Below, piece by piece: positions 1 to 46,181 of a DNA stretch of 64,000 nt; position 1 is the stretch's first letter; the number at the start of each line of letters is the position of its first letter. The stretch is from an uncultured Planctomycetales bacterium. GTDB lineage: Bacteria > Omnitrophota > Gorgyraeia > Zapsychrales > Zapsychraceae. The DNA is taken from NCBI GenBank assembly GCA_964535935.1, contig CAZHWM010000007.1, positions 37,708-101,707 of the forward strand, written 5' to 3'. The notes under the pieces were generated by a model. The model saw only the letters and a list, made by a program, of their open reading frames with translations. It was not told the DNA's origin and ran no database searches. Made by a program: the position numbers and the translations under genes.

Positions 1-355
1 CCGGGGCAGCAACAACCACATCAAACCCCAAAAAACCCTTTAATACCTTTTCCACCAAATCATCCGCTCCAACAATATCTGCTCCTGCCTCTTTTGCCTT
101 TTGTTCTAATTCTCCTTTACAAAAAACTGCTATCCTTATTTTTTTACCAACTCCATGTGGGAGAACCACCGTCCCTCTAACAGTTTGATCAGAACTCTTA
201 GGATTGATCCTTAAAGAAAAATGCAGCTCTACACTCTCATCGAAATTAACCTTAGGAAATTTATCTATCTTCTCTATAGCCTCTTCTAAGGAATATTCCT
301 TTTTGGTATCAACAACTTCCCTTGCCTGTTTCATCCTTTTGCTTATTCTAACCAT
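1..355 (-). CDS. rplA: 50S ribosomal protein L1, N-terminal part (C-terminus runs off the window start)
   Basis: Minus-strand translation from the ATG at 353-355 gives MVRISKRMKQAREVVDTKKEYSLEEAIEKIDKFPKVNFDESVELHFSLRINPKSSDQTVRGTVVLPHGVGK..., which is typical L1. It starts 1 nt after the rplK stop, the conserved rplKA order. Confidence 0.9.
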   Translation of the reverse strand, partial: MVRISKRMKQAREVVDTKKEYSLEEAIEKIDKFPKVNFDESVELHFSLRINPKSSDQTVRGTVVLPHGVGKKIRIAVFCKGELEQKAKEAGADIVGADDLVEKVLKGFLGFDVVVAAP

Positions 356-1964: not shown

Positions 1965-2037
1965 AGCCCCCGACCGGAATTGAACCGGTGACCCCGTCCT
2001 TACCAAGGACGTGCTCTACCGTCTGAGCTACAGGGGC
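1965..2037 (-). tRNA. trnT: tRNA-Thr (anticodon GGT)
   Basis: 73-nt minus-strand cloverleaf GCCCCTGTAGCTCAGACGGTAGAGCACGTCCTTGGTAAGGACGGGGTCACCGGTTCAATTCCGGTCGGGGGCT. The anticodon stem-loop is CGTCC-TTGGTAA-GGACG. Confidence 0.9.
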
Positions 2038-7886: not shown

Positions 7887-9146
7887 TCATTGTCTTATCT
7901 GACCATTTCCATAGATAATATATTTATAAGTAGTCAATTCTCTTAATCCCATTGGTCCTCGAGCATGCAATTTATCTGTACTAATACCTATTTCAGCACC
8001 AAATCCAAACTGATACCCATCTGTAAATCTCGTAGAGGCATTTACATATACAGAGGATGAATCTACTGACTGCAAAAACACTTCTGCCTCTCTTTTATCT
8101 CTAGTAATAATAGCATCAGAATGGTGAGAGCCATGGGTATTAATATGATCAACTGCCTCTTGCAAGGAGTCTACTACCTTCACTGACAAAACAAGATCAA
8201 GATACTCCTCATCCCAATCTTTTGCCAATGCACGTTTTACTCCTTTTTTAACAATCTTTCTTGTCCTCATACATCCCCTTATCTCTACACCCGCCTCTTG
8301 AAATTGCTTAATCATCTCAGGTAAAAACCTATCTGCTATCTTGCTATGGACCAACATCGTTTCCATTGCATTACATACTCCTGGTCTCTGTACCTTTGCA
8401 TTAAAACAAATAGATGCGGCCATAGATAAATCTGCCTTATCACTAACATATGTATGACAAATACCTTTATAATGTTTAATAACTGGAATAGTCGAATTCT
8501 GAGAAACAAAACGAATAAGCCCTTCGCCTCCTCTTGGAATAATCATATCCACGTACTTATCCTGTTTTAAAAGAAAACCAACCGACTCTCTATCCGTAGA
8601 TGGCATCAATTGTATACATCCGGCTGGCAACTTAGAAGATAAAATTTCTTCTCTTAAAACTAAAAATATCGCTTTATTAGAAAAAGAGGCTTCTTTACCA
8701 CCTTTCAGCACAACTGCATTGCCCGATTTTATACATAAACCAATACAATCACTAGTAACATTAGGCCTGGATTCATAAATAATCCCAATAACTCCTATAG
8801 GGACCCTAACTTTTTTAATAAGTAATCCATTAGGTCTTTTAAAAGAGGCTATCTGTTCTCCAACAGGATCATCAAGTGCTGCTGTTTCATTAAGACATTC
8901 AGCCATAGCCTTAATCCTTGCATCATTTAACCTAAGCCTATCTATCAACGCAGATGAATATCCTTGTTTTTCAGCAAATGCAATGTCTTTTCGGTTCTCT
9001 TGTATAAGATACTCTGCATTCTTTTTTAAAGCACGGCTCATTCTGCGCAGAAGAGTATTCTTTTGTGCGGAATCCACTGTAACCATCTTCTCAGCAGCTG
9101 CCTTTGCAGCCTTAACCTTTTTTATTATCATAGATTCAGATACCAT
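7887..9146 (-). CDS. proA: Gamma-glutamyl phosphate reductase
   Basis: 419 aa of the aldehyde-dehydrogenase-like ProA family (VIGIIYESRPNVT, catalytic Cys context PGVCNAMETMLVH). Adjacent to proB. Confidence 0.95.
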   Translation of the reverse strand: MVSESMIIKKVKAAKAAAEKMVTVDSAQKNTLLRRMSRALKKNAEYLIQENRKDIAFAEKQGYSSALIDRLRLNDARIKAMAECLNETAALDDPVGEQIASFKRPNGLLIKKVRVPIGVIGIIYESRPNVTSDCIGLCIKSGNAVVLKGGKEASFSNKAIFLVLREEILSSKLPAGCIQLMPSTDRESVGFLLKQDKYVDMIIPRGGEGLIRFVSQNSTIPVIKHYKGICHTYVSDKADLSMAASICFNAKVQRPGVCNAMETMLVHSKIADRFLPEMIKQFQEAGVEIRGCMRTRKIVKKGVKRALAKDWDEEYLDLVLSVKVVDSLQEAVDHINTHGSHHSDAIITRDKREAEVFLQSVDSSSVYVNASTRFTDGYQFGFGAEIGISTDKLHARGPMGLRELTTYKYIIYGNGQIRQ

Positions 9147-9147
9147 A

Positions 9148-10239
9148 CTATTTCCCCATTAACAAAAGATTATTTCTATGAATTAATTCTTGGCGACCTT
9201 TTTTATCTTCTATCTTATTTAGTTCAGCTACAGAATAATTTATTACTCCTCTGGCTATCTCTATACCATCTTTATCAAAAACTGATACTACATCTCCTTT
9301 TTTAAAATATCCATCCCATGAAATAATACCGGGCAAAAGAAGACTTTTACCTTTATTAACCAATGCATCCTTTGCCCCATCATCTATCACAACCTTACCT
9401 TTAACCTTTGCTTGAAATGCTATCCAATGCTTTCTTGCAAGTATCTTATCCTGTTTCTCTACAAAATACGTACCTATATGTTCGCCTGTGATTATCCTTG
9501 TCAACACATCACGGACCATACTACTAGCAACTATACATGGTATCCTTGCATGAGCTGCTATCTTTATAGCATCCAACTTAGCCGCCATTCCGCCCTTTGA
9601 CATCTTACCTTTCATAGGGCCGCCGGCAATACGCTCAATCTCTGCAGTTATCTCTTTTACTTCACTTAAAACATGCCTTTCACCATCCTTTAGTTCATAT
9701 AACCCTTCTACATCTGAAAGAATAATCAACAAATCTGCATGTAGCAGACTTGCAACAAAGGCCGAAAGCCTATCATTATCTCCAAATCGTATCTCATCTA
9801 TAGCTATAGTGTCATTTTCATTAACTATTGGAATAACGCCCTTTTCCAAAATAGACAACAAGGTTTTTTTTGCATTATTATTCCTCTTACGATTATCAAA
9901 ATCGTCCCATGTCAAAAGAACCTGAGCACAATGCAAATTTTTACGTTTAAATAATTCAGAGTATGCTCTCATCAAAACCGTTTGACCAACAGCTGCAAAT
10001 GCCTGTAAAGACGCCACATCATTTTTAATTATATGCCTTTCTCTTAACTCTCCTATCCCCAAAACAATAGCACCCGAACTTACAACAACAATCTCTATAC
10101 CCTGACTATGCGTAAAAGCTATCTGCTTGATTAAAGAGCGTAACCACCGTCTATTCGGAAGAAAATTCTCATCTGCAATAGCTGCAGAACCTATTTTTAC
10201 TACAATACGTTTTAACGGCCTAGGAAATTTCCTCAACAT
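9148..10239 (-). CDS. proB: Glutamate 5-kinase (with C-terminal PUA domain)
   Basis: 363 aa. Amino-acid kinase fold (VVKIGSAAI, VVSSGAI, FGDNDRLSA) plus a PUA-like tail. Its stop is 1 nt from the proA start. Confidence 0.95.
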   Translation of the reverse strand: MLRKFPRPLKRIVVKIGSAAIADENFLPNRRWLRSLIKQIAFTHSQGIEIVVVSSGAIVLGIGELRERHIIKNDVASLQAFAAVGQTVLMRAYSELFKRKNLHCAQVLLTWDDFDNRKRNNNAKKTLLSILEKGVIPIVNENDTIAIDEIRFGDNDRLSAFVASLLHADLLIILSDVEGLYELKDGERHVLSEVKEITAEIERIAGGPMKGKMSKGGMAAKLDAIKIAAHARIPCIVASSMVRDVLTRIITGEHIGTYFVEKQDKILARKHWIAFQAKVKGKVVIDDGAKDALVNKGKSLLLPGIISWDGYFKKGDVVSVFDKDGIEIARGVINYSVAELNKIEDKKGRQELIHRNNLLLMGK

Positions 10240-10314
10240 AGTCTCTCTCGTTTACGAATTTCAGACAGATTCTCATGTTGTATATATAGTCAAATTAAAA
10301 AACAAATACCAGTA

Positions 10315-11274
10315 TTAAGACAAAAAATTTTTTATCTCTTTTAAAAGTGGTTTTAACCCCCTCTTCTCCATAGCTGATATGGCAAAGACCTTTTCATTAT
10401 ACTTTCTTTTAAACCTTGCAAGATTTATTCGGGCCTGAGGAATATCCATTTTATTCGCAACAATAATCTTGTTTTTAAAACTAACCTCTTCGCTATATTC
10501 TTCTAGTTCACGGACTATCTGCTCATAATCAGTTAATGGATCTCTTCCATCTGTTGCTGCCATGTCTATAACATGTAAAAGAAGTCTCGTCCGCTCTGCA
10601 TGTCGTAAAAATCTTAGCCCCAATCCCCTGCCTTTATGGGCATCTTTTATTAGCCCAGGTAAATCTGTCATAATAAAACTAAAATCTCCATCGGATACCA
10701 CCCCAAGAACAGGGTACTTTGTAGTAAATGGATAGTTGCCTATTTTAGAGGTCACACGTGACATAGCAGAAATAAGAGTTGACTTGCCAGCATTCGGACA
10801 ACCAATAATTCCTACATCAGCAATCAGTTTTAACTCTAAACTAATCGTCCTTTTCTCTCCCTTACCCGGAGCAACTACTGTCTTGTTATTTGCATTACCT
10901 ATACCTCCTTTGCCACCTCTTGCAACAGTTACTGATTGCTTATCTGTATTAAGGTCCTTTATTAAAAGTCCTGTATCATAATCGCGTAAAATAGTTCCTA
11001 CAGGGACCCGAATAACACAATCCTTACCATCTCTACCTTTTTTACCTTTACTGCTGGCATTCCCTCCTTTCTGTGCCTTATAATGCTGCTTAAATCTAAA
11101 ATCCAACAAAGTCTGTATAGATCTATCAGCGATGAAAACAACATCTCCACCTTTACCGCCATCTCCTCCATCTGGACGGGGATAACGCATATATTTCTCT
11201 CGATAATAGCTCTCACATCCCTTACCGCCGCTACCTGCTTCTACATAAATCTTGGCCTCATCTACAAATATCAT
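10315..11274 (-). CDS. obg: GTPase Obg (short form, no C-terminal extension)
   Basis: 319 aa. Glycine-rich Obg fold (FVDEAKIYVEAGSGGKGC, DGGDGGKGGDV) then GTPase motifs G1 GCPNAGKST and G3 DLPGLI. Confidence 0.95.
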   Translation of the reverse strand: MIFVDEAKIYVEAGSGGKGCESYYREKYMRYPRPDGGDGGKGGDVVFIADRSIQTLLDFRFKQHYKAQKGGNASSKGKKGRDGKDCVIRVPVGTILRDYDTGLLIKDLNTDKQSVTVARGGKGGIGNANNKTVVAPGKGEKRTISLELKLIADVGIIGCPNAGKSTLISAMSRVTSKIGNYPFTTKYPVLGVVSDGDFSFIMTDLPGLIKDAHKGRGLGLRFLRHAERTRLLLHVIDMAATDGRDPLTDYEQIVRELEEYSEEVSFKNKIIVANKMDIPQARINLARFKRKYNEKVFAISAMEKRGLKPLLKEIKNFLS

Positions 11275-18201: not shown

Positions 18202-18231
18202 TAAAAAAGGGGCTGTATATAAACAGCCCCT
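18202..18231 (-). terminator. Rho-independent terminator after the first pilin gene
   Basis: Minus strand reads AGGGGCUGU-UUAUAU-ACAGCCCCU followed by UUUUUU, about 30 nt after the pilin stop. Confidence 0.7.
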
Positions 18232-18261: not shown

Positions 18262-18657
18262 TTAATTTAACCATACACCACCTGTTGTAATCTGAAATGT
18301 CTGAGAACCTGTAACCCCTTTATTAACTGGTGTAGCAGTTATAGTATAGCCGCCAGCATCCCATTGACATGTAATCTGAAATCCTGCCTTTGTAGTTCCA
18401 CAATATGATTCTGTTAAATAAGCTGGAGTTGCATCAGTAAGATCAGACTCTGCTGTAGGATATTGACCATTATTTGCTGTAGAATATGATTCTGCTGCTG
18501 TTGATATAGTACGTAAGGTACTCTTAGCAATAGAATCGTTGGATGCTACCTTTGCCCTTAACAACCCGGGAATTGCTATCATTGCTAAGACAGCAATAAT
18601 AGCTACAACAATCATAATCTCTACTAAGGTAAAACCTGATTTCTCTTTTAATCTCAT
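18262..18657 (-). CDS. pilA: Type IV pilin (probable major pilin)
   Basis: The internal ATG at 18655-18657, with RBS AAGGAAAGGAGAAAGAGG, gives MRLKEKSG then FTLVEIMIVVAIIAVLA (G-1, F+1, E+5). The Cys pair is YCGTTKAGFQITC. The ORF-track start at 18696 adds an unlikely 13-aa extension. Confidence 0.85.
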   Translation of the reverse strand: MRLKEKSGFTLVEIMIVVAIIAVLAMIAIPGLLRAKVASNDSIAKSTLRTISTAAESYSTANNGQYPTAESDLTDATPAYLTESYCGTTKAGFQITCQWDAGGYTITATPVNKGVTGSQTFQITTGGVWLN

Positions 18658-18915
18658 CCTCTTTCTCCTTTCCTTTACCAAAGAATAATTAATCATCCTT
18701 TAGTATCGGAACCGCTCAATAAAGATGTCTTTCTAGCATTTTTCATTATTATCTAATTAAAAATTATTATTACAGAACCCTATAATTATCTCTAAATTAT
18801 GCGGTTCCTATTTTTTATTTATTTTTAATTACTCTTCTATCTTGAACTATGATCCAGCAAATATTTTTTATTTCACCTCCTTCCCTGCTAAATTTAATCA
18901 TAGTCACAAGTAAAC

Positions 18916-18947
18916 AAAAAAAGCCTATCCCACTCATAGGGATAGGC
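18916..18947 (-). terminator. Intrinsic terminator, candidate expression platform of the c-di-GMP riboswitch
   Basis: Minus strand reads GCCUAUCCC-UAUGAGU-GGGAUAGGC followed by UUUUUUU, 27 nt downstream of the aptamer and about 260 nt upstream of the pilin ATG. Confidence 0.75.
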
Positions 18948-18974
18948 ATAATACTTCAACTTCTTTTATTTTTA

Positions 18975-19049
18975 CGGCAACTGGCTACCCTGAAGATAAT
19001 TATTTCAGGGCCCTATAGCTTTGTGTCCCACCCTTACGAATGGTTTACC
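18975..19049 (-). promoter_or_regulatory. c-di-GMP-I (GEMM-I) riboswitch aptamer
   Basis: Minus strand reads GGUAAACCAUUCGUAAGGGUGGGACACAAAGCUAUAGGGCCCUGAAAUAAUUAUCUUCAGGGUAGCCAGUUGCCG. This aligns with the V. cholerae Vc2 aptamer GGCAAACCAUUCGAAAGAGUGGGACGCAAAGCC...GGUAGGUAGCGGGGUUACCG. Shared features are a GNRA-capped hairpin CCAUUC-GUAA-GGGUGG, the GGGAC(R)CAAAGC core, a second hairpin CCCUGAA/UUCAGGG, and a closing helix GGUAA/UUGCC. Confidence 0.8.
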
Positions 19050-19081
19050 TTTTTCGTTAATTCTGTTAATTGTCCATTGAA

Positions 19082-19110
19082 AGTATAACATGCTATATCA
19101 ATGTTGTCAA
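19082..19110 (-). promoter_or_regulatory. Sigma70 promoter driving the riboswitch-pilin leader
   Basis: Minus strand reads TTGACA (19110..19105), a 17-nt spacer, then TATACT (19087..19082), about 25 nt upstream of the aptamer. Confidence 0.6.
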
Positions 19111-19271: not shown

Positions 19272-20309
19272 CTATTTTTGTATTTCTAATAGTTCTTTTT
19301 TTAAAGTCTTATTTTCATTATGAATAATAGATAAATTCTTTTTAAGACTATCCACATCCTCGCCTACACTTACAAGATTTTCTGTCTCCTCTATCTTTTT
19401 TTTTAGTTTTGTTATTAATTCATTTAATTCACGTTTTCGTGTTCTTAATTTTTCAATTTCCATCTCTATCTTTGACAAACTAACATTATTTGTCTCTCGT
19501 AAAGCCTTTATCTGTGACTGTAAAATTTTTTCATCGTCTAATGCTGTTTTATATTCCTTCTCCAATTCAGCAAGAGTGTTCTTTAATATCTTATTTTCTC
19601 CCTCTAGGTCATCAAGCTCTCTTAAAGGAACAGCATATTTCCTACAAATTAATTGTTTTTCTCTTTTTAGTGAAATTGTATTCTTTTTTCTTTTCTCTAT
19701 AGACTCAATAAGTCGTTGCTTTTCTTCTATAAATTTATTATTTTCATCTGAAGAAAGAATTTTTATTTCCTTTTTTATTGTTTCAACATCCTCTTGCAAT
19801 TTCTTCGCTTGTTTTTTTAACTTATCAATCTGTTGTTGATTAGCATTTATCTTAGCTATCAGAGATAATCTTTCTTTGTCTAACCCAGAAACATTTTGAT
19901 TTACTGTTGGTAACTTCTTTTCTAAAGAATTACTTTCTTCTAATTTATCAGACAGATAACTTGAAAGTTTATTCTTCTCTTTTATGAGAATTTCTTTCTC
20001 TTGCAAAAGTTTGTCATATCTTTTTTTTAAATTATCTATCTGCTCTTGAAATATTTTTATTTTCGTAGAGAGCCATTTATTACGCTGCTTTACCTTATCG
20101 GCACTCTCCTTAAGACTCCGTAGACTCTGTTCTAAAAGAGCCATAATAGAAACATGATGCCTTGAAATTTGAGAAAAGGAAGATGTGCTCCATGAAAAAA
20201 CAACGATACAAACAACCGACATAAAATAAATTCTTTTTATACCCTTTATAAATAAAAAAGCGAAAATATTTCTATTTCTTCTATATATTTTATTTCTTAT
20301 TATAGACAT
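19272..20309 (-). CDS. Membrane-anchored/secreted long coiled-coil protein, unknown function
   Basis: 345 aa. N-terminal hydrophobic segment (MSVVCIVVFSWSTSSFS), then about 300 aa of K/E/L/Q-rich heptad-like sequence. I recognise no catalytic motif. Located between pilC and the pilin leader. Confidence 0.6.
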   Translation of the reverse strand: MSIIRNKIYRRNRNIFAFLFIKGIKRIYFMSVVCIVVFSWSTSSFSQISRHHVSIMALLEQSLRSLKESADKVKQRNKWLSTKIKIFQEQIDNLKKRYDKLLQEKEILIKEKNKLSSYLSDKLEESNSLEKKLPTVNQNVSGLDKERLSLIAKINANQQQIDKLKKQAKKLQEDVETIKKEIKILSSDENNKFIEEKQRLIESIEKRKKNTISLKREKQLICRKYAVPLRELDDLEGENKILKNTLAELEKEYKTALDDEKILQSQIKALRETNNVSLSKIEMEIEKLRTRKRELNELITKLKKKIEETENLVSVGEDVDSLKKNLSIIHNENKTLKKELLEIQK

Positions 20310-21561: not shown

Positions 21562-23274
21562 TTATTCATCTGCTGTAACACGTATAACCTCTTCTAGTGT
21601 TGTAAACCCTGCTATACATTTAGACATCGCATCATCCCATAAAGTAGCCATTTCTTTATTTTTACGTGCATATCCTTTTATTTCGTCTGAAGACTTTCCT
21701 CTTAATAAAAGATTTCTAATTTCGTCATCTACATCTAACACTTCTGTAACACACATCCTTCCTAGATATCCAGTATTACGACAAACATCACAGCCTTCCC
21801 CCTTATATAAAGTTATCCCCGATTTAAATTTATCTGTTAGATTCAATTTCTCTAATATTAGGTCTGTATCTTTTCTCTCTTGTTTGCAATGGGGGCATAT
21901 TCTTCGACACAATCTCTGTGCACTAATACATACAATACTTGATGCCACAAGAAATGGCTCTACCTGCATGTCTATCAACCTAGTCAAAGCACCGGCAGCA
22001 TCATTTGTATGCAAAGTAGAAAAAACTAATTGTCCTGTAAGTGATGCCTTAATTGCTATATCTGCAGTCTCATTATCCCTTATTTCTCCTACCATGACAA
22101 TATCTGGACTCTGCCGTAATATAGCACGCAAGCCCTCTGCAAAAGTTAAACCTATTTCTGGCCTGGTCTGTATCTGTGTAAGACCTTCTATCAAATATTC
22201 CACCGGATCTTCTACTGTTATAATATTTTTGTCCACTGTATTCAACTCGTTTATAATTGAATATAAAGTAGTGGACTTTCCACTCCCAGTAGGGCCAGTA
22301 ACTAAAATCATCCCAAACGGCTTCCTGATGGCCTCCTGAAGTATCGCCAAAGCATTCTCCGATATACCAAGTTCACTTAGGCCAACAGAAAGATTACCTT
22401 TATCAAGCACACGCATAACAACCTTCTGCCCAAATGTTGTAGGCAACAATGATACACGAAAATCAATCTCTTTATTTGATATACGCATCTTAAACCTACC
22501 ATCCTGTGGAATCTGGTTAACAGTAATATCCAATTTTGACATAATTTTTATTCTCACAATAACTGCATTCTGATTTTCTTTAGGTATTGTTAAAACATCA
22601 TGTAAGACGCCATCAACCCGAAACCTAACCCTCACGGCATCTGCCATGGGTTCTATATGTATATCAGAAGCTCGCTGCTTTACTGCCTCTTTTACTATAA
22701 GGTTGACCATACGTACAATAGGGGCTCGCTCACTTTCATCAACAACATTATCATCTGCAGTTTCGTCATGATCACTTACAATCTCAAAATCATCTATTTT
22801 TATATCCTTGCTTATATCTGTCACAGTTGTCTCAGTGGGGATACCGTAATAGTTATCAATAGTCTTAGATATCTCGGAATCTGTACTCATCACCACATCA
22901 ATATCTTTACCTGTGATATTATGCAAATCATCCGTAACAAATACATTTAATGGATCAGACATAGCAATAGTTATAGTATTATCTAATGCCGATAAGGGGA
23001 CAATATGGTACTGCCTTGCAACATTTTCTGGAATAATTTCTTGAAGAGAAGGATCTATCTTATATTTCTTAAGATTAATAAAAGGCACATTAAGCTCACG
23101 AACTAGCAAACTCAACAAATCTTCCTCATTTATGAGCCCTCGCTCTAACAATGCCTTATCAAAACTTATTGCCTTCTGTTCAGCAAGTCTCTGGACATCC
23201 TGTATATCCTTTTCTTTCAATTGCTTTGAGGCAATCAGGGCCTTTATAATTTTATCTTTTAATGTCTCCGCCAT
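21562..23274 (-). CDS. pilB: PilB/GspE-family pilus extension ATPase (copy 1)
   Basis: 570 aa. T2SSE_N region, Walker A GPTGSGKST, Asp box, Walker B IVMVGEIRD, His box, and a tetracysteine CPHC...CDVC. Confidence 0.95.
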   Translation of the reverse strand: MAETLKDKIIKALIASKQLKEKDIQDVQRLAEQKAISFDKALLERGLINEEDLLSLLVRELNVPFINLKKYKIDPSLQEIIPENVARQYHIVPLSALDNTITIAMSDPLNVFVTDDLHNITGKDIDVVMSTDSEISKTIDNYYGIPTETTVTDISKDIKIDDFEIVSDHDETADDNVVDESERAPIVRMVNLIVKEAVKQRASDIHIEPMADAVRVRFRVDGVLHDVLTIPKENQNAVIVRIKIMSKLDITVNQIPQDGRFKMRISNKEIDFRVSLLPTTFGQKVVMRVLDKGNLSVGLSELGISENALAILQEAIRKPFGMILVTGPTGSGKSTTLYSIINELNTVDKNIITVEDPVEYLIEGLTQIQTRPEIGLTFAEGLRAILRQSPDIVMVGEIRDNETADIAIKASLTGQLVFSTLHTNDAAGALTRLIDMQVEPFLVASSIVCISAQRLCRRICPHCKQERKDTDLILEKLNLTDKFKSGITLYKGEGCDVCRNTGYLGRMCVTEVLDVDDEIRNLLLRGKSSDEIKGYARKNKEMATLWDDAMSKCIAGFTTLEEVIRVTADE

Positions 23275-23333: not shown

Positions 23334-25091
23334 TCATCCCTCAACTCTATGAAGTGGATCATCTGGAGCGGTTACCCTTAAGACTTCCTCAAGAGTTGTC
23401 AAGCCTTTAGCAGCCTTAGCCAATCCATCCTCCCGCATAGTCTTCATACCCTCCGCACGAGCTACTTGTTTAATCTCAAATTCACCTGCCCTTTGTAATA
23501 TATATTCTTTTATTCGTGCAGATAAAACACAAATTTCAGTAATGCCTACCCGCCCTTTATATCCTGTATTAAAACATTCATCACATCCTCTGCCTTTATA
23601 AAATTGGATATCGCCTTCCTTTAAATATTGTGCAATGCCTATCCTTTTAGCGATATCTTCCGGCACATTATATAGTTCTTTACATTTAGGACATATCCGC
23701 CTTAAAAGCCTCTGGGCAACAATAGCAAGTACAGATGAACATATAAGAAAAGGTTCTATTCCCATATTCATCATACGTATAACCGAGCCTGCCGCTGTTG
23801 TCGTATGCAATGAACTTAAAACCAAATGTCCTGTAAGTGCTGCCTTTACAGCTATATCTAATGTCTCTGAATCCCGTATCTCACCTATCATAATTATATC
23901 AGGGTCCTGCCTTAAAATCGAACGTAAACATACAGGGAAGGTTAACCCCATAGAAGATTTTATATTTACCTGATTAAGCCCTGGCATCTCATATTCAACA
24001 GGATCCTCTACTGTAACGATATTTTTCTCCGGGGAATCTACAAACTTAAGAATAGAATATAGAGTAGTGGTCTTACCACTACCTGTTGGGCCACAGGTTA
24101 AAATCATACCATGTGGTTTTACTACACACTCCTTAAGTCGTTTCATAGATTCTGGTTCAAACCCTAATTTATCTATATTAAGCACTGAACTATCTTGATC
24201 AAGCACTCGTAATACAATCTTTTCGCCCAAAACGGTAGGGAGGACATTAACTCTAAAATCAACTTCATGATCCCCTGAAATAATCATCTTAAACCTTCCA
24301 TCCTGTGGGATCCTGTGTTCAGAGATATCCAAATTCGATATTACCTTAAACCTCGAAATAAGAGGGGAAAGAAGGACTTTCGCCATTCGGTCTATTTCCC
24401 GTATCACACCGTCCACACGGTATCTGATACGCATAGACTTCTCTAGCGGCTCTATAAATACATCACTTGCTCCTGCCATAACTGCCTGTTTGATAATTGT
24501 ATCTGCCAATTTAATTATAGGTGCTTCCTCTGTTAACTCCTCCACTATTTCTTGACTTTGAGAAGAATCTATATCCTTAACCAATTCAAGATCCTCTGTA
24601 TCCCTAATATCCTGCATGATCTCATCGAATGTTTCCGTTTTTTCATCAGAAGCTTGCTCTTGCTTATAATAACTATCCAAAACAGCCTCTATTTCCTTAG
24701 GGGAGCTAATGACAGGAATTATTGAATATCCTGTAAGTGCTTTTAAATTGTCTATTGCAAAAATATTAAGAGGGTCAGCCATCGCCACAGTCAAATGCTC
24801 CCCTATAAGAGAAATGGGCACAAGCTGATAATTACGACACACCTTAGAGGGGATAATTTTTATTATAGAAGAGTCCAATTTAACACAGGAAACCTTGATA
24901 ATAGGGATACCAAGTCCCTCACTCAATACCTGTCTGAGAGTATCCTCATCTACTAATTTCATCTTCAAGAGAATCTTCCCAAGTTCTTCTCCTGTCTTAG
25001 CCTGCTCATCCAATGCACGACTCAGGTCCTCAGAAGATATAATACCATCACGAATAAATATAGCTTTTAAGCGATCGTTTAAAGATGCCAT
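23334..25091 (-). CDS. PilB/GspE-family ATPase (copy 2) with MshEN-like N-terminus
   Basis: 585 aa. N-terminal RLKAIFIRDGIISSEDLSRALDEQ-AKTGE-ELGKILLKMKLVDEDTLRQVL, Walker A GPTGSGKTT, Walker B IIMIGEIRD, and CPKC...CDEC. Confidence 0.93.
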   Translation of the reverse strand: MASLNDRLKAIFIRDGIISSEDLSRALDEQAKTGEELGKILLKMKLVDEDTLRQVLSEGLGIPIIKVSCVKLDSSIIKIIPSKVCRNYQLVPISLIGEHLTVAMADPLNIFAIDNLKALTGYSIIPVISSPKEIEAVLDSYYKQEQASDEKTETFDEIMQDIRDTEDLELVKDIDSSQSQEIVEELTEEAPIIKLADTIIKQAVMAGASDVFIEPLEKSMRIRYRVDGVIREIDRMAKVLLSPLISRFKVISNLDISEHRIPQDGRFKMIISGDHEVDFRVNVLPTVLGEKIVLRVLDQDSSVLNIDKLGFEPESMKRLKECVVKPHGMILTCGPTGSGKTTTLYSILKFVDSPEKNIVTVEDPVEYEMPGLNQVNIKSSMGLTFPVCLRSILRQDPDIIMIGEIRDSETLDIAVKAALTGHLVLSSLHTTTAAGSVIRMMNMGIEPFLICSSVLAIVAQRLLRRICPKCKELYNVPEDIAKRIGIAQYLKEGDIQFYKGRGCDECFNTGYKGRVGITEICVLSARIKEYILQRAGEFEIKQVARAEGMKTMREDGLAKAAKGLTTLEEVLRVTAPDDPLHRVEG

Positions 25092-25165: not shown

Positions 25166-25609
25166 TCATATATAATATTTATCTATAGCCTGTCTTATCT
25201 CTGTAGCAGTGGCAACAAACACCTGAACAATACAGCCAGTAATCACCTCCACATCCTCTACCGCCTGCATATTTAAAGGATTCGACATAGCCAAAGTAAG
25301 ACTTTTACCAATCTTATCAATTGGAACAAGACAATACTGCTGGCATAAGTTCTTAGGCACAGAACCTATTACTTCCGGATCTATTTCATAATTTGCTAAC
25401 GGAAGATACGGAAAACCATACTGACATGTCAGTGCCTGAGCAATATCCTTCTCAGTACAAAACTTCAACTCAACCAAAACCTCTCCTATAAGCCCCCCCT
25501 GCCTCTTCCAATATTCTAGGGCATTATTTAACTGCTCATGGGTAATAACACCCCTCTCTATCAGAAGCTCCCCTATCTTCTTTTTGGTTGTTCTTGTATA
25601 ACTCTTCAT
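25166..25609 (-). CDS. Stand-alone PilB/GspE N-terminal domain protein (MshEN-like + T2SSE_N, no ATPase)
   Basis: 147 aa. KIGELLIERGVITHEQLNNALEYW-KRQGG-LIGEVLVELKFCTEKDIAQALTCQ is followed by a T2SSE_N-type segment (YGFPYLPL...LVPIDKIGKSLTLAMSNPLNMQAVEDVEVITGCIV). Confidence 0.75.
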   Translation of the reverse strand: MKSYTRTTKKKIGELLIERGVITHEQLNNALEYWKRQGGLIGEVLVELKFCTEKDIAQALTCQYGFPYLPLANYEIDPEVIGSVPKNLCQQYCLVPIDKIGKSLTLAMSNPLNMQAVEDVEVITGCIVQVFVATATEIRQAIDKYYI

Positions 25610-31463: not shown

Positions 31464-31862
31464 TGGTGGAGGTGCGGGGAATCGAACCCCGGTCCTTGCA
31501 ACGTTATGCATAAGCTTCTACATGCTTAGCCTGTCAATTAATCTCCCCCTTGCTGCCTTGACAGGCAAAGTCAACAAAAGGCAGCCCTCTAAAAATCTCA
31601 CATCCGCCCCAAGGGCAAGGACAGATGCCAGCCTGCTAGTGACCTTTTATAGACCCGCAGGCAAGACCTATAAAAGGGCCTTGTTTATCTATTAAACAAG
31701 GGCTTCGTCACCTGCAAAGACAGGTTCCACTATAGAACTTGCCTTTGCTAACAAACGTTCATTCTCGCCGTTTGTTTTTGCCCGGATGATTAACGAGGCC
31801 AACCAGGCTTCCTCGGCATGCCACTTATGCATCAACTGTCCAAGTCGAGACCAATCACCCCC
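31464..31862 (-). ncRNA. ssrA: tmRNA (SsrA)
   Basis: Minus strand starts GGGGGUGAUUGGUCUCGACUUGGACAG and ends ...GGGGUUCGAUUCCCCGCACCUCCACCA. The acceptor GGGGGUG/CACCUCC carries the G3:U70 alanine identity pair and the CCA is encoded. An internal reading frame ends ...GCA GGU GAC GAA GCC CUU GUU UAA UAG, with the stops in the loop of a hairpin (CCUUGUUUA/UAAACAAGG). Confidence 0.92.
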
Positions 31863-42777: not shown

Positions 42778-43794
42778 TCATATCTGGTTCTCATCAAAAA
42801 CACAAACCCTGTTTCTCCCTAATTTTTTGGCGCGATACAATGCCCAATCTGCCTTATCTATAAGAGTTTCCTCTTCCTTTCCATCGTAAGGAAAAGTGGA
42901 TATCCCAATACTTAAAGTAACCTTCACTACAGCATCATAGACCCTAATTTTAGAGGCCTCTACAGCCTTTCGTATACGTTCTGCAACATACATAGCTCCT
43001 TGCCTATCTGTATCAGGCAAAATAATACAAAATTCCTCTCCTCCATAACGACCTGCAATATCTATTTCGCGAATATTTGTCTTAATAATAGAACCTACTT
43101 CTCTCAATATTTTATCCCCTGTCAAATGTCCATACTTATCATTACATTTTTTGAAAAGATCAATATCTACCATAAGAAACGACAATTTTATTCGTCGCAT
43201 ACTAGAACGCTTTATTTCCTCCCTAAATCTCGATAATGCATATCTTCTGGTATTTACTCCTGTGAGATTATCTGTAATAGCTACCCTCTCTATTTTTTGA
43301 TACAAACTAACTCTACGTAATGCTAAGGCAAATTGATGTGCCAAAATAACAATCTTATCTTCATCTTCTGGGGAGGCTCCTCTAATCAATAACCTTCCTA
43401 TCTGCTCCTCCCTTGCCCTAAGTAAGAAGACAAATTCTCCTTTACCCGCATGTATATCTGACTTATTATCTGTAACTGGAATAAATCTACATTCCCTAAA
43501 ACGGACATGTTCTTTTAATTTTTGTTTAAAAATATTAAAGGCTTCTTGTTGACTAATACTCTTAGTAATATCTTTCATCAACTCATACAAAACAAAGATC
43601 TCATTAGCTTCTGTCTGTAATTCTACCTTACGTGCGTCAAGTTCTTTTTTCTTGGCCTTCAAAACATAACAACGATGAGACACATTCTTAAGTTGTTGAT
43701 GTAAATCAAGTTCAAGATTTACAATCGTATTCTTACAAATAAAAAAAATTACTGCTATATAAGCAAAGACTATTATAAAATATAAAAAAATCAT
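42778..43794 (-). CDS. Membrane-anchored diguanylate cyclase (GGDEF, with RxxD I-site)
   Basis: 338 aa. N-terminal TM, coiled coil and a sensor-like region. The GGDEF domain has REID-IAGRY-GGEEF, an I-site 5 residues upstream of the active site. Confidence 0.9.
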   Translation of the reverse strand: MIFLYFIIVFAYIAVIFFICKNTIVNLELDLHQQLKNVSHRCYVLKAKKKELDARKVELQTEANEIFVLYELMKDITKSISQQEAFNIFKQKLKEHVRFRECRFIPVTDNKSDIHAGKGEFVFLLRAREEQIGRLLIRGASPEDEDKIVILAHQFALALRRVSLYQKIERVAITDNLTGVNTRRYALSRFREEIKRSSMRRIKLSFLMVDIDLFKKCNDKYGHLTGDKILREVGSIIKTNIREIDIAGRYGGEEFCIILPDTDRQGAMYVAERIRKAVEASKIRVYDAVVKVTLSIGISTFPYDGKEEETLIDKADWALYRAKKLGRNRVCVFDENQI

Positions 43795-43816
43795 ATAAAG
43801 ACCCTATAATAAGCTA

Positions 43817-45106
43817 TCAACAAATACATATTCTGTTTTTCCCATGCCGCTTAGCCTTATACATTGCAATATCTGCTTTATGTATCAAATCTTCTCGAGT
43901 TTTAGCATCTCTAGGGAACATGGCGATCCCAATAGATACCGTGATATGTGTCTTTTCCCTACGTAACACAATCTCCTCTTCCGCTATTCTGAGACGTATT
44001 CCTTCCGCCATACGCAAAGCCGTTTCCTGTCTACATTCAGTAATAATAACACAAAACTCTTCACCTCCATAACGACAAACCAAAGTCCCTGGTCTATTAA
44101 ATAATGACGATAATATCCTTCCAACTGCCTTCAATACAATATCTCCCGCAATATGTCCATATCTATCATTATATTGCTTAAAATTATCCAAATCCAACAT
44201 AAGAAACGCCATACTCCTTTGTCTACGTATATGTCTTAAAACCTCTTCCCCTAATCTGTCCATACAATAGTGTCTCAAATACAATCCTGTAAGACTATCT
44301 CGTGTTGCAAGCTGGCCGACCCTTTCATATAACTGGGCATTTTCAATAGCAATAGCGCCAAGATCTCCCACAGTAGTCAAAAATCTCAAATCATCTGTGG
44401 TGAAATAATGTTTAATATGACTATCCACCCTTAAAATACCTAAAGCCTTATTGGCAGATATCAACGGGGTGGTTATCAAAGAACAAATTCTCCGTGCCGT
44501 ACCTAAACAATTAATATCAAACCGAAAATCCGTTCTAACATCCTCCACAAGCAATGATTGCATAGTCCTTGCCACCCAATGGTCAAAAATGTCCCCCTGT
44601 TTTTCTTTTATATTAACCTTCATTCTTCCCTTATGAGAATAAGATATACCTAACTCTCCTGTCCTAGAATGAAATAGATATAATATAATAGTAACATTCT
44701 CTCCAAAATGTTTATTGAGTTCTACAGAAATAGCCTTTGATACATCATCCAAAGAAAGGCACATACTTAACTTTTCCGCAAGTCCTTTGAGTTGAAAATA
44801 ATGAATAATCTTCTCCCCAAAAGAATTTATCGCTGTTTCTTCTTTTCTAATCTCAATTTCAAGAAGATTAATCTCTTCGTGACAATGTTGAATTTTAAGC
44901 AAAATTTCTTTACGTGTCTCATGGAAACGAACATGAAGAGGGAAAAGAAGAATAAGACAAGAAGCGAATCCTAAAAATAAAGCAATAAATGCCTTTGCAT
45001 CGAATACCGTAGCATAGACAAAAAAAAGTACAGCAATAAATATCAAAATAACTGATATTACTACAGGATGAGATTTAAACAATGGTTTTCTCTGTGTCCT
45101 TATCAA
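43817..45106 (-). CDS. Membrane GAF-GGDEF diguanylate cyclase (no I-site)
   Basis: 429 aa. Two N-terminal TMs, a GAF-like domain (LLVEDVRTDFRF...ALGILRVDS...AIAIENAQLYERV), and GGDEF with RPGT-LVCRY-GGEEF, where the RxxD position lacks Asp. The ORF start overlaps the upstream ATPase gene by 32 nt, so the true start may be internal. Confidence 0.9.
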   Translation of the reverse strand: MIRTQRKPLFKSHPVVISVILIFIAVLFFVYATVFDAKAFIALFLGFASCLILLFPLHVRFHETRKEILLKIQHCHEEINLLEIEIRKEETAINSFGEKIIHYFQLKGLAEKLSMCLSLDDVSKAISVELNKHFGENVTIILYLFHSRTGELGISYSHKGRMKVNIKEKQGDIFDHWVARTMQSLLVEDVRTDFRFDINCLGTARRICSLITTPLISANKALGILRVDSHIKHYFTTDDLRFLTTVGDLGAIAIENAQLYERVGQLATRDSLTGLYLRHYCMDRLGEEVLRHIRRQRSMAFLMLDLDNFKQYNDRYGHIAGDIVLKAVGRILSSLFNRPGTLVCRYGGEEFCVIITECRQETALRMAEGIRLRIAEEEIVLRREKTHITVSIGIAMFPRDAKTREDLIHKADIAMYKAKRHGKNRICIC

Positions 45107-46181
45107 AAAAATGCACCTTATTCATATCAAGAACCAAATCCATATCTTTATTAACATCCGGTCTATTATGAGCTGCTACACGAGCGATAAAAGTATGTCT
45201 TCCGGTATTTAAATGCAAATATACCTCTGATCCCAAAGGCTCAACAACCTCACATACCGCACGAATAGTATGCTCTTCAGATGCCTCGGAAACAAAAAGT
45301 TTATCATATATATCCTCAGCCCTTACCCCCAAAATCACCTCTTTACCCTCATAGGGAGCAATCTGTTTATACATTTCTTTAACCAATCTCACCTTAAACC
45401 TACCTTCATCAAAAAAATATTTTCTTTCCTTTTTAATAATCCTACCATCCATCAAATTTATAGGAGGTGTGCCTATAAAACCTGCAACAAACTTATTGGC
45501 AGGCTTATTATAAACGGTCATCGGATCTGCACATTGTAGAAGCTTACCATCCTTCATTACCGCTATCCTATCACCCAACGTCAATGCCTCTATCTGGTCA
45601 TGAGTAACATAAATAAATGTAGTCTGTAATTTTAACCGTAATTTATGTATCTCTGTCCGCATCTGAACACGCATTTTCGCATCTAAATTACTCAAGGGTT
45701 CATCAAACAAAAATACCATAGGTTTTCTAACAATAGCTCGTCCTAACGCTACCCGCTGTCTTTCTCCTCCTGACAGTTGTCTGGGTTTTCTGTTAAGAAG
45801 ATGTCGTATTCCTAATATTTCTGTAGCCTCAATAACCCTCCTTTCAATTTCAGACTTAGGAAATTTTCTCAACCTTAATCCAAATGACATATTTTCATAT
45901 ACAGTCATATGAGGATAAAGTGCATAATTTTGAAAAACCATAGCAATATTTCTATCCTTTGCAGGGACATCGTTTACCATCCTATCCCCAATCCAAACCG
46001 TCCCTTCAGTAACCTCTTCCAGTCCAGCTATTATCCTTAATGTAGTAGATTTACCACATCCAGATGGACCAACCAGGACTAAAAATTCCTTATTTTCTAT
46101 TCCTAAAGTTATATTATCTACTGCCTTTCTCTTACTACTTGCATACACCTTTGTGACTTTCTGTAAACTTACTTGTGCCAT
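45075..46181 (-). CDS. Sugar-type ABC transporter ATP-binding protein (MalK/UgpC/MsmX family), no permease nearby
   Basis: 368 aa. Walker A GPSGCGKST, signature LSGGERQRV, Walker B VFLFDEPLSNLD, and a C-terminal MalK-like regulatory domain. Confidence 0.92.
   Translation of the reverse strand: MAQVSLQKVTKVYASSKRKAVDNITLGIENKEFLVLVGPSGCGKSTTLRIIAGLEEVTEGTVWIGDRMVNDVPAKDRNIAMVFQNYALYPHMTVYENMSFGLRLRKFPKSEIERRVIEATEILGIRHLLNRKPRQLSGGERQRVALGRAIVRKPMVFLFDEPLSNLDAKMRVQMRTEIHKLRLKLQTTFIYVTHDQIEALTLGDRIAVMKDGKLLQCADPMTVYNKPANKFVAGFIGTPPINLMDGRIIKKERKYFFDEGRFKVRLVKEMYKQIAPYEGKEVILGVRAEDIYDKLFVSEASEEHTIRAVCEVVEPLGSEVYLHLNTGRHTFIARVAAHNRPDVNKDMDLVLDMNKVHFFDKDTEKTIV

Follow-up and report, generated by a model that had tools for sequence, protein, structure and literature searches.

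How is the supply of the major type IV pilin adjusted in a bacterium of the Candidatus Omnitrophota? The question is raised by a stretch of 64,000 nucleotides (contig CAZHWM010000007.1 of assembly GCA_964535935.1; the whole stretch is called the window below), in which a gap of 575 bp, between a coiled-coil gene (19272-20309) and the open reading frame (ORF) of the pilin, holds a regulatory module on the minus strand. The explanation that we consider likely, judged as a whole and from comparison of sequences, is that a promoter (P1), a canonical GEMM-I aptamer (class I aptamer for cyclic di-guanosine monophosphate, c-di-GMP) and an intrinsic terminator form the leader of the major pilin gene. 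That a c-di-GMP-I riboswitch acts on this terminator can be predicted with high confidence, and an OFF direction, brought about by one particular antiterminator pairing, is the version of its working towards which we lean.

The promoter-aptamer-terminator module

The three parts of the module had been proposed in a first-pass annotation made from the letters of the DNA, and each of them has been recovered independently at its place (Table 1). A promoter scan over 2 kb has ranked promoter P1, a strong site of the sigma-70 type, as the best of 15, and transcription from it would be expected to start near 19075. Covariance search of the entire 64-kb window at the Rfam gathering thresholds has returned four matches, namely a tmRNA, two tRNAs and one riboswitch, the last of which is the proposed GEMM-I aptamer; the 75-nt string that had been quoted for it is found in the window sequence. 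The terminator hairpin (18947..18923) has a 9-bp stem with 6 G-C pairs and a folding energy of -16.3 kcal/mol, and it is one of two terminator-like sites that the scan has detected in 2 kb, where shuffles lead one to expect 0.4; the second site lies at the end of the first pilin gene. A 79-amino-acid ORF on the plus strand (18849..19088) is read as an artefact, as it had been before, because it overlaps the conserved RNA. The inverted repeat CCTATTCC...GGAATAGG has also been considered as the protein operator of a downstream promoter and rejected as the main explanation, since its arms stand anywhere between 3 and more than 13 nt apart and are in every case followed by a T-run.

The support for a functional RNA comes from relatives. 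The PilC protein of the window has an identical counterpart on metagenome contigs (ERZ27262694; GCA_006243085.1), and a PilC search with one genome per species has given 80 loci with 39-72% identity, nearly all of them from metagenome-assembled Candidatus Omnitrophota. When a covariance model (R1), built by hand from 19 homologous aptamers, was run on these loci and the window, 48 matches were obtained, all on the PilC strand and typically 1-3 kb downstream of PilC; the window contains a single match, scored at 100.1 bits. After alignment of the 19 sequences with MAFFT, the GEMM-I fold is paired in 93.8% of cells over 22 pairs, and compensatory changes, affecting both sides of a pair, have been observed in 10 of these 22, a number that none of 500 shuffles has reached, whereas slid controls show 32-50% of cells paired and only 3-4 pairs with compensatory changes. 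The P1 helix of the aptamer is weak across the homologues (72% paired), and the second hairpin is of variable length, some homologues carrying insertions as long as about 70 nt. An RNAalifold prediction on the same alignment has offered a pairing of GGUAA with UUGCC as the native fold; it has been rejected in favour of the GEMM-I junction pairs because columns 14-37 covary perfectly (U-A 17, C-G 2) and columns 14-98 include a C-A mismatch, and it may instead represent a ligand-free alternative.

The surroundings of the aptamer are equally well preserved. A hairpin followed by a T-run is found after 43 of the 48 homologous aptamers, usually 35-65 nt downstream, a promoter of the TTGACA-17-TATACT type lies at most 70 nt upstream in 36 of 44 related loci (0.011 per locus in shuffles), and a pilin gene with the N-terminus GFTLVEIMIVVAIIALLAAIAIPNL begins 200-480 nt downstream of the aptamer in nearly all relatives. 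Two loci (L038, L046) carry two pilin genes each, and there one aptamer per gene. The order promoter, aptamer, terminator and pilin is kept in about 40 related Omnitrophota loci, and the module is thus a phylum-wide unit; the covariation and conservation that the first-pass annotation had named as a check are present.

Table 1. Positions of the features discussed, numbered from the first letter of the window
Feature	Position	Strand	Sequence or evidence
Promoter P1	19110..19082	-	TTGACA-17-TATACT, TG extended -10; 11/12 consensus match
c-di-GMP-I (GEMM-I) aptamer	19058..18972	-	RF03167, 64.1 bits, cut-off 59, E = 7.9e-13
Aptamer P1 helix	19057-19055 / 18976-18974	-	3 bp in window
Aptamer first hairpin	19043-19028	-	GUAA loop
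Aptamer second hairpin	19020-18979	-	
Equivalents of ligand contacts	G 19049, A 19022, C 18977	-	Vc2 G20, A47, C92, from Rfam alignment
Predicted antiterminator, upstream strand	19041-19017	-	AUUCGUA-A-GGGUGGG-A-CA-C-AA-A-GCU; minimum-energy folds
Linker, aptamer to terminator	18973..18948	-	A/U-rich; 3' part AGUAUUAUG in predicted antiterminator strand
Predicted antiterminator, downstream strand	18955-18932	-	AGU-A-UU-A-UG-CCUAUCC-C-UAUGAGU; minimum-energy folds
Intrinsic terminator	18947..18916	-	GCCTATCCC-TATGAGT-GGGATAGGC + T7 (RNA GCCUAUCCC-UAUGAGU-GGGAUAGGC + U7); terminator scan
Degenerate counterpart of promoter P2	18891..18863	-	TTAGCA-17-AAAAAT; 8/12; AAGGAGGTG kept at 18882-18874
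Major type IV pilin gene	18262..18657	-	prepilin MRLKEKSG/FTLVEIMIV...; Pfam N_methyl, E = 1.1e-07
Intrinsic terminator after first pilin gene	18231..18208	-	terminator scan
MshEN-domain proteins (three)	21562-23274, 23334-25091, 25166-25609	-	
GGDEF (GGEEF) proteins (two, adjacent)	42781-43803, 43820-45121	-	one with GAF domain
tmRNA gene	31464-31862	-	185 bits
tRNA genes (two)	1594-1667, 1965-2037	-	

Predicted switch direction and antiterminator pairing

Terminator stems normally drift in sequence. The 5' arm of this terminator is nevertheless conserved in the relatives as CCUAUUC, often after (U)GUG(A), which suggests that it has a second pairing partner, and the conserved arm is complementary to the aptamer core GGRUGGG-ACAC. 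Three candidate partners of the arm have been compared over 38 distinct leaders, the register of pairing being kept fixed. For the first-hairpin strand GGRUGGG, on the 3' side, 94.4% of cells are paired with the arm (slid controls 27-69%), and for the 5' junction AAAGGU 72% (slid controls 21-58%); the latter pairing, which is broken by CCC-type arm variants, has been rejected. The switching pair put forward by the first-pass annotation, GGGUAG with CUAUCC, is possible, as 89% of cells are paired (slid controls 34-69%), but a C-A mismatch occurs in 8 of the 38 leaders, those in which the second hairpin has C and not U, and a longer pairing, which joins the arm to GGGUGGG-ACAC in the 3' strand of the first hairpin and the core, fits better. 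A further candidate, in which the GUGA ahead of the terminator would pair with the P1 helix on its 3' side, has been dropped, for no covariation is seen by eye and GUGA is kept where P1 is CCGCUU.

Duplex energies point to the same partner. The arm forms its most stable duplex with the first-hairpin region in 36 of 40 leaders, and the mean energy of this pairing is -9.3 kcal/mol as compared with -5.4 for the 3' strands of the second hairpin and P1 helix (the GGGUAG side). For the extended duplex, in which a 20-nt core strand is set against 19 nt around the arm, a mean of -13.0 kcal/mol has been calculated versus -7.6 for shuffled arms, and 31/40 leaders exceed their own shuffles by more than 3 kcal/mol. 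Moreover, the first aptamer hairpin (CCAUUC-GUAA-GGGUGG, 19028-19043) and the terminator hairpin (CCUAUCC-CUAUGAGU-GGGAUAGG, 18923-18947) are near reverse complements of each other, and can accordingly either fold separately or join in a single helix of about 17 bp, an alternative preserved throughout the phylum. For the full window leader the fold of lowest energy is the antiterminator fold (-45.8 kcal/mol, z = -3.64), which is also obtained for the window transcript truncated before the terminator 3' arm. Its upstream strand spans the loop and 3' strand of the first hairpin, the junction and the start of the second hairpin, and its downstream strand runs from the last part of the linker through the terminator 5' arm into the loop of the terminator.

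ON switches of this kind usually share sequence between the P1 helix, on its 3' side, and the 5' arm of the terminator. Here, the terminator is self-contained and a linker stands between it and the P1 helix, so the usual ON layout is absent. An OFF switch is predicted because both possible antiterminators use strands of the aptamer, the terminator has no overlap with P1, and no complementary segment would be released upon binding. In the absence of ligand, AGUAUUAUG-CCUAUCC-C-UAUGAGU would invade the first aptamer hairpin by pairing with AUUCGUA-A-GGGUGGG-ACACAAAGCU, the 3' strand of this hairpin together with the core next to it, and so form an antiterminator that permits read-through. With c-di-GMP bound, the aptamer core would be locked, the terminator 5' arm would be free for its own 3' arm, and transcription would stop at the U7 run. 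The riboswitch would in this way set the share of promoter-P1 transcripts that pass the terminator into the pilin gene, and high c-di-GMP would lower the pilin transcription driven by promoter P1. This predicted direction with this particular antiterminator is favoured, at a confidence well below that given to the riboswitch itself.

Several results speak against this model. None of the three candidate pairings covaries, and permuting the partners among the leaders gives the same paired fraction, since both strands are almost invariant. According to base-pair probabilities of truncated transcripts, no more than 9 of 39 leaders have the arm paired mainly with the 3' strand of the first hairpin, and its partner is often the 5' junction instead. 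Constrained folding favours the state with aptamer and terminator, by a median of 5.8 kcal/mol in the relatives and 1.6 in the window; as the terminator state is equally or more stable, a choice for read-through would need co-transcriptional, kinetic control. An OFF switch on pilin would also oppose the case of pilA1 in Clostridioides difficile (PMC6366702) and look odd beside ATPases of the MshEN type.

These last considerations lead to the strongest rival, an ON switch, in which the same aptamer and terminator are retained and binding of c-di-GMP blocks the terminator and raises pilin transcription. It would follow the analogy with the C. difficile riboswitch Cdi-2-4 upstream of pilA1 (PMC6366702) and agree with an activation of MshEN-type pilus ATPases by c-di-GMP, and termination could be the default, as the terminator state is the more stable one in 41/42 full-length leaders. 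An ON-type layout does exist in this group, for another GEMM-I in the relative L003 (7928-8018) has a hairpin overlapping its 3' strand. At the pilin leaders, however, no ligand-released segment complementary to the terminator arms is seen, the window linker being A/U-rich without a GGGAUAGG-like stretch, few leaders show pairing of the terminator 5' arm with the linker, and the conserved complementarity joins this arm to aptamer strands that ligand binding would render inaccessible. We consider the ON switch unlikely on these grounds and keep the predicted OFF switch as the working model.

The additional aptamer of L003 deserves a description of its own. It lies directly after PilC, its 3' strand GGGUUACC overlaps the hairpin GGUUACC...GGUAAUCC, which is followed by a U-run, and downstream of it (8054-10579) an 841-amino-acid cysteine-rich protein with a Flp-pilin-like N-terminus (GQNMTEY) is encoded.

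A second promoter and the pilin leader

How much of the pilin expression would pass through the riboswitch depends on what lies behind its terminator. In 34 of 44 relatives a second promoter, P2, scoring at least 10/12, has been found between the riboswitch terminator and the pilin gene (0.09 per locus in shuffles). It takes the sigma-70-like form TTGACA-16..18-TAGAAT or TAAAAT, stands directly after the terminator (e.g., at about 4400-4430 in L022, and in L007, L013 and L048) and lies at an almost fixed distance from the pilin motif (median 172 nt). Inside the P2 spacer (TTGACA-N-TAGAAT) a perfect Shine-Dalgarno-like AAGGAGGTG occurs in 18 loci, with no start codon after it. The window has retained only a degenerate counterpart of P2 (Table 1), the sole other promoter candidate being a 9/12 site at 18794..18766, and upstream of the pilin gene no strong promoter-like site other than promoter P1 has been found. 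For the identical contig, a public gene prediction (L002 8320-8454, corresponding to 18815-18949 on the minus strand of the window) places a 44-amino-acid protein here, with its start inside the terminator stem (ATGCCTATCCC...); as it overlaps the terminator and the promoter remnant, it is probably an artefact.

The frequency of P2 counts against a simple leader, since the riboswitch may then control only part of the pilin expression, and in P2-bearing genomes its influence is limited to transcription which either supplements or disturbs a separate promoter of the pilin gene. The claim of a riboswitch module in the pilin leader therefore stands with regard to the conserved order, but has to be qualified in that P2 gives the pilin of the relatives another transcription route. 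One may go further and read the conserved arrangement, in which the second strong promoter is followed by a structured leader of about 150 nt and then by the pilin gene, as a two-promoter device whose riboswitch unit is an independent c-di-GMP-sensing small RNA or gates a read-through that interferes with, or adds to, the pilin promoter. This seems a rather improbable arrangement; if true, it would be a layout not described for GEMM-I and apparently fixed across the candidate phylum.

Less probable still is that the element is no leader at all and is made as a stand-alone transcript of about 160 nt, acting as a c-di-GMP-binding RNA in trans or as a sponge, or through read-through interfering with the pilin promoter. 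Its strong promoter of its own and strong terminator would suit such a role, as would the consensus P2 that follows directly in 34/44 relatives at constant distance to the pilin gene. Yet the element is always co-oriented with the pilin gene and directly upstream of it, including the duplicated pilins of L038 and L046, the degenerate P2 of the window (8/12) leaves P1 as its sole strong promoter-like site, and we know of no trans target for the promoter-aptamer-terminator unit. A leader of the pilin gene is hence the reading that we retain.

The pilin start has been assigned to the ATG at 18657 (MRLKEKSG/FTLVE, ribosome-binding site AGGAGAAAGAGG), rather than to the mechanical ORF start at 18696, which leaves about 260 nt between terminator and start codon. 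In the relatives, the pilin leaders (130-200 nt) contain a long hairpin with the central motif ACGGCAUUAUAYUUAC and a basal helix GAGYCAAU/AUUGRCUC. This helix, which was picked by hand, is paired in 69.6% of cells (slid controls 18-44%), with 31 compensatory cells against 14.3 in shuffles. RNAalifold has found no consensus structure on a MAFFT alignment of the pilin 5' untranslated regions, and the hairpin has had no Rfam match in the scan of the window or of 11 related loci. A possible counterpart in the window is located at about 18774-18811 (AGGAACC...GGUUCU), inside a longer A/U-rich hairpin; the window pilin leader did not align in register with those of the relatives.

Ligand class, gene cluster and known systems

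Which ligand is to be expected can be read from three residues. In Vc2, the Vibrio cholerae aptamer, c-di-GMP is contacted by G20, A47 and C92 (PMC4744006). The same G/A/C triad has been found in the window and in about 44 of the 48 homologues, where the equivalent of G20 is an unpaired G before the GU pair and that of C92 an unpaired C before P1, and this canonical triad makes c-di-GMP the expected ligand. A complication arises from Rfam, and it speaks against the assignment: the top-scoring family is a variant class with an unsettled ligand, RF03167 ('c-di-GMP-I-GGC'), which comes ahead of RF01051, although its defining base is absent in the window. The first-pass annotation had expected RF01051; a clan match above the cut-off does exist at the locus, but RF01051 is not the top family. 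One further family of the same clan passes its own cut-off there, the lower match being hidden by clan competition.

Among the 14 homologous aptamers compared by an Rfam scan of 11 related loci, RF03167 wins 11 (59.2-73.3 bits, cut-off 59) and RF01051 wins 3 (55.7-65 bits, cut-off 35). Exactly 11 hidden clan matches occur in these loci, so that a second clan family passes wherever RF03167 wins, and both models hence score these RNAs almost equally. The label 'GGC', which we take to denote the triad with A47 changed to G, agrees with the RF03167 consensus GCGAA and its conserved G. The window instead has ACAAA with an A, the match line being blank there, and A occupies the variant-defining position in all full-length homologues. 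As the variant-defining G has been looked for and is absent, the window element is, by the bases of its pocket, to be filed under canonical c-di-GMP-I, neither as a GGC variant nor as a cGAMP type, and the Rfam label is misleading for this aptamer as far as these bases go. A specificity variant sensing another ligand, be it the uncharacterised one of the GGC class, to which the top Rfam family would point, or 3'3'-cGAMP as in the GEMM-Ib (c-AMP-GMP) riboswitches of Geobacter, is very improbable given this A, given a G in window and homologues at position 20 where cGAMP riboswitches have A, and given that RF01051 passes its cut-off in the homologues too, with similar scores.

In its architecture the element is likewise close to Vc2, the type example of RF01051, with which it shares the three helices, a GNRA loop on the first hairpin, the core GGYAAACC...GGGACRCAAAGC...AGCC...GYURCC, and candidates for the interhelical Watson-Crick C-G pair that is universally conserved in GEMM-I (PMC4744006). 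For this pair, GGGAC supplies the candidate C (column 36) and the UAG bulge the candidate G (column 90), neither of which changes in any of the 19 aligned homologues. In type 1 GEMM RNAs the GNRA loop docks into a receptor in the second hairpin. Here the first-hairpin loop reads GUAA (window) or GUAA, GAAA or GUGA (homologues), and the putative receptor side of the second hairpin (CUAUAGGG / GGGUAGCC) is conserved and differs from the classical 11-nt motif. Unlike RF01051, the group has a phylum-specific scaffold with a variable second hairpin, a pair adjoining the G20 equivalent that is U-A in place of C-G (U-A in 17 and C-G in 2 of 19 homologues), and a slightly higher score on the GGC model.

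The gene served by this leader belongs to a complete type IV pilus system on the minus strand, comprising a T2SSK-like protein, a stand-alone MshEN protein, two MshEN+T2SSE ATPases, PilC, the coiled-coil protein, two pilins, PilM, PilN, PilO, a small protein and a secretin. The earlier statement that MshEN-type proteins are encoded in the cluster and GGDEF proteins nearby has been borne out, with three of the former and two of the latter, the GGDEF pair lying about 24 kb from the cluster. An alignment by eye to PleD suggests that neither GGDEF protein has the usual Asn and Asp at two guanine-contact positions (LTGLYLRHYCMDRLG, LTGVNTRRYALSRFR), and these residues might bear on the nucleotide that is made, a point that would favour the rival of another ligand. 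In the alignment of the tmRNA gene of the window, a long insertion falls where the Rfam model has its tag-coding part.

Comparable switches of both classes are known. The C. difficile element Cd1, a class I riboswitch upstream of flgB, is an OFF switch in which c-di-GMP causes termination (PMC6366702), and like Cd1 and the Bacillus elements Bc1 and Bc2 the window RNA combines a class I aptamer with an intrinsic terminator behind it. With Bc1 it also shares a long stretch from aptamer to start codon (PMC11218506). The target differs, being a type IV pilin rather than flagellar, chemotaxis or adhesin genes, and so does the predicted antiterminator, which here would use the 3' strand of the first internal hairpin. 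Cdi-2-4 resembles the window element in being a c-di-GMP riboswitch with a terminator upstream of a major type IV pilin gene, pilA1, where it controls termination (PMC6366702), but it is of class II, has an unrelated fold and is an ON switch, whereas the window element is of class I and predicted to be OFF. GEMM-I aptamers with terminators and a c-di-GMP riboswitch upstream of a major pilin gene (class II, ON) were thus already known, and our understanding of how GEMM-I works is unchanged by the findings. The new points are modest and consist of the misleading Rfam label, the predicted OFF switch with an antiterminator invading the first hairpin, and the conserved two-promoter layout. In the collection of papers that was searched for Omnitrophota together with riboswitches, type IV pili or c-di-GMP, no description of an Omnitrophota riboswitch has turned up.

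Omnitrophota are ultra-small, possibly host-dependent bacteria. To our knowledge no cultured model exists for the candidate phylum, and type IV pili belong to the few surface machines that can be identified in it. For annotation, the case means that Rfam clan competition labels RNAs with a canonical pocket as the 'GGC' variant, by which automated annotation would mis-assign the ligand class. For the biology of the group, the second promoter together with the structured leader downstream shows a layered pilin expression, and the predicted logic, in which c-di-GMP would shut off pilin transcription within a cluster that also encodes three MshEN-domain proteins, would be the opposite of that of pilA1 in C. 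difficile. The module provides Candidatus Omnitrophota with a predicted RNA receptor for c-di-GMP that is direct and open to testing, and since the module sequence is conserved across dozens of genomes, the outcome of one in-vitro experiment would probably hold for most of the relatives.

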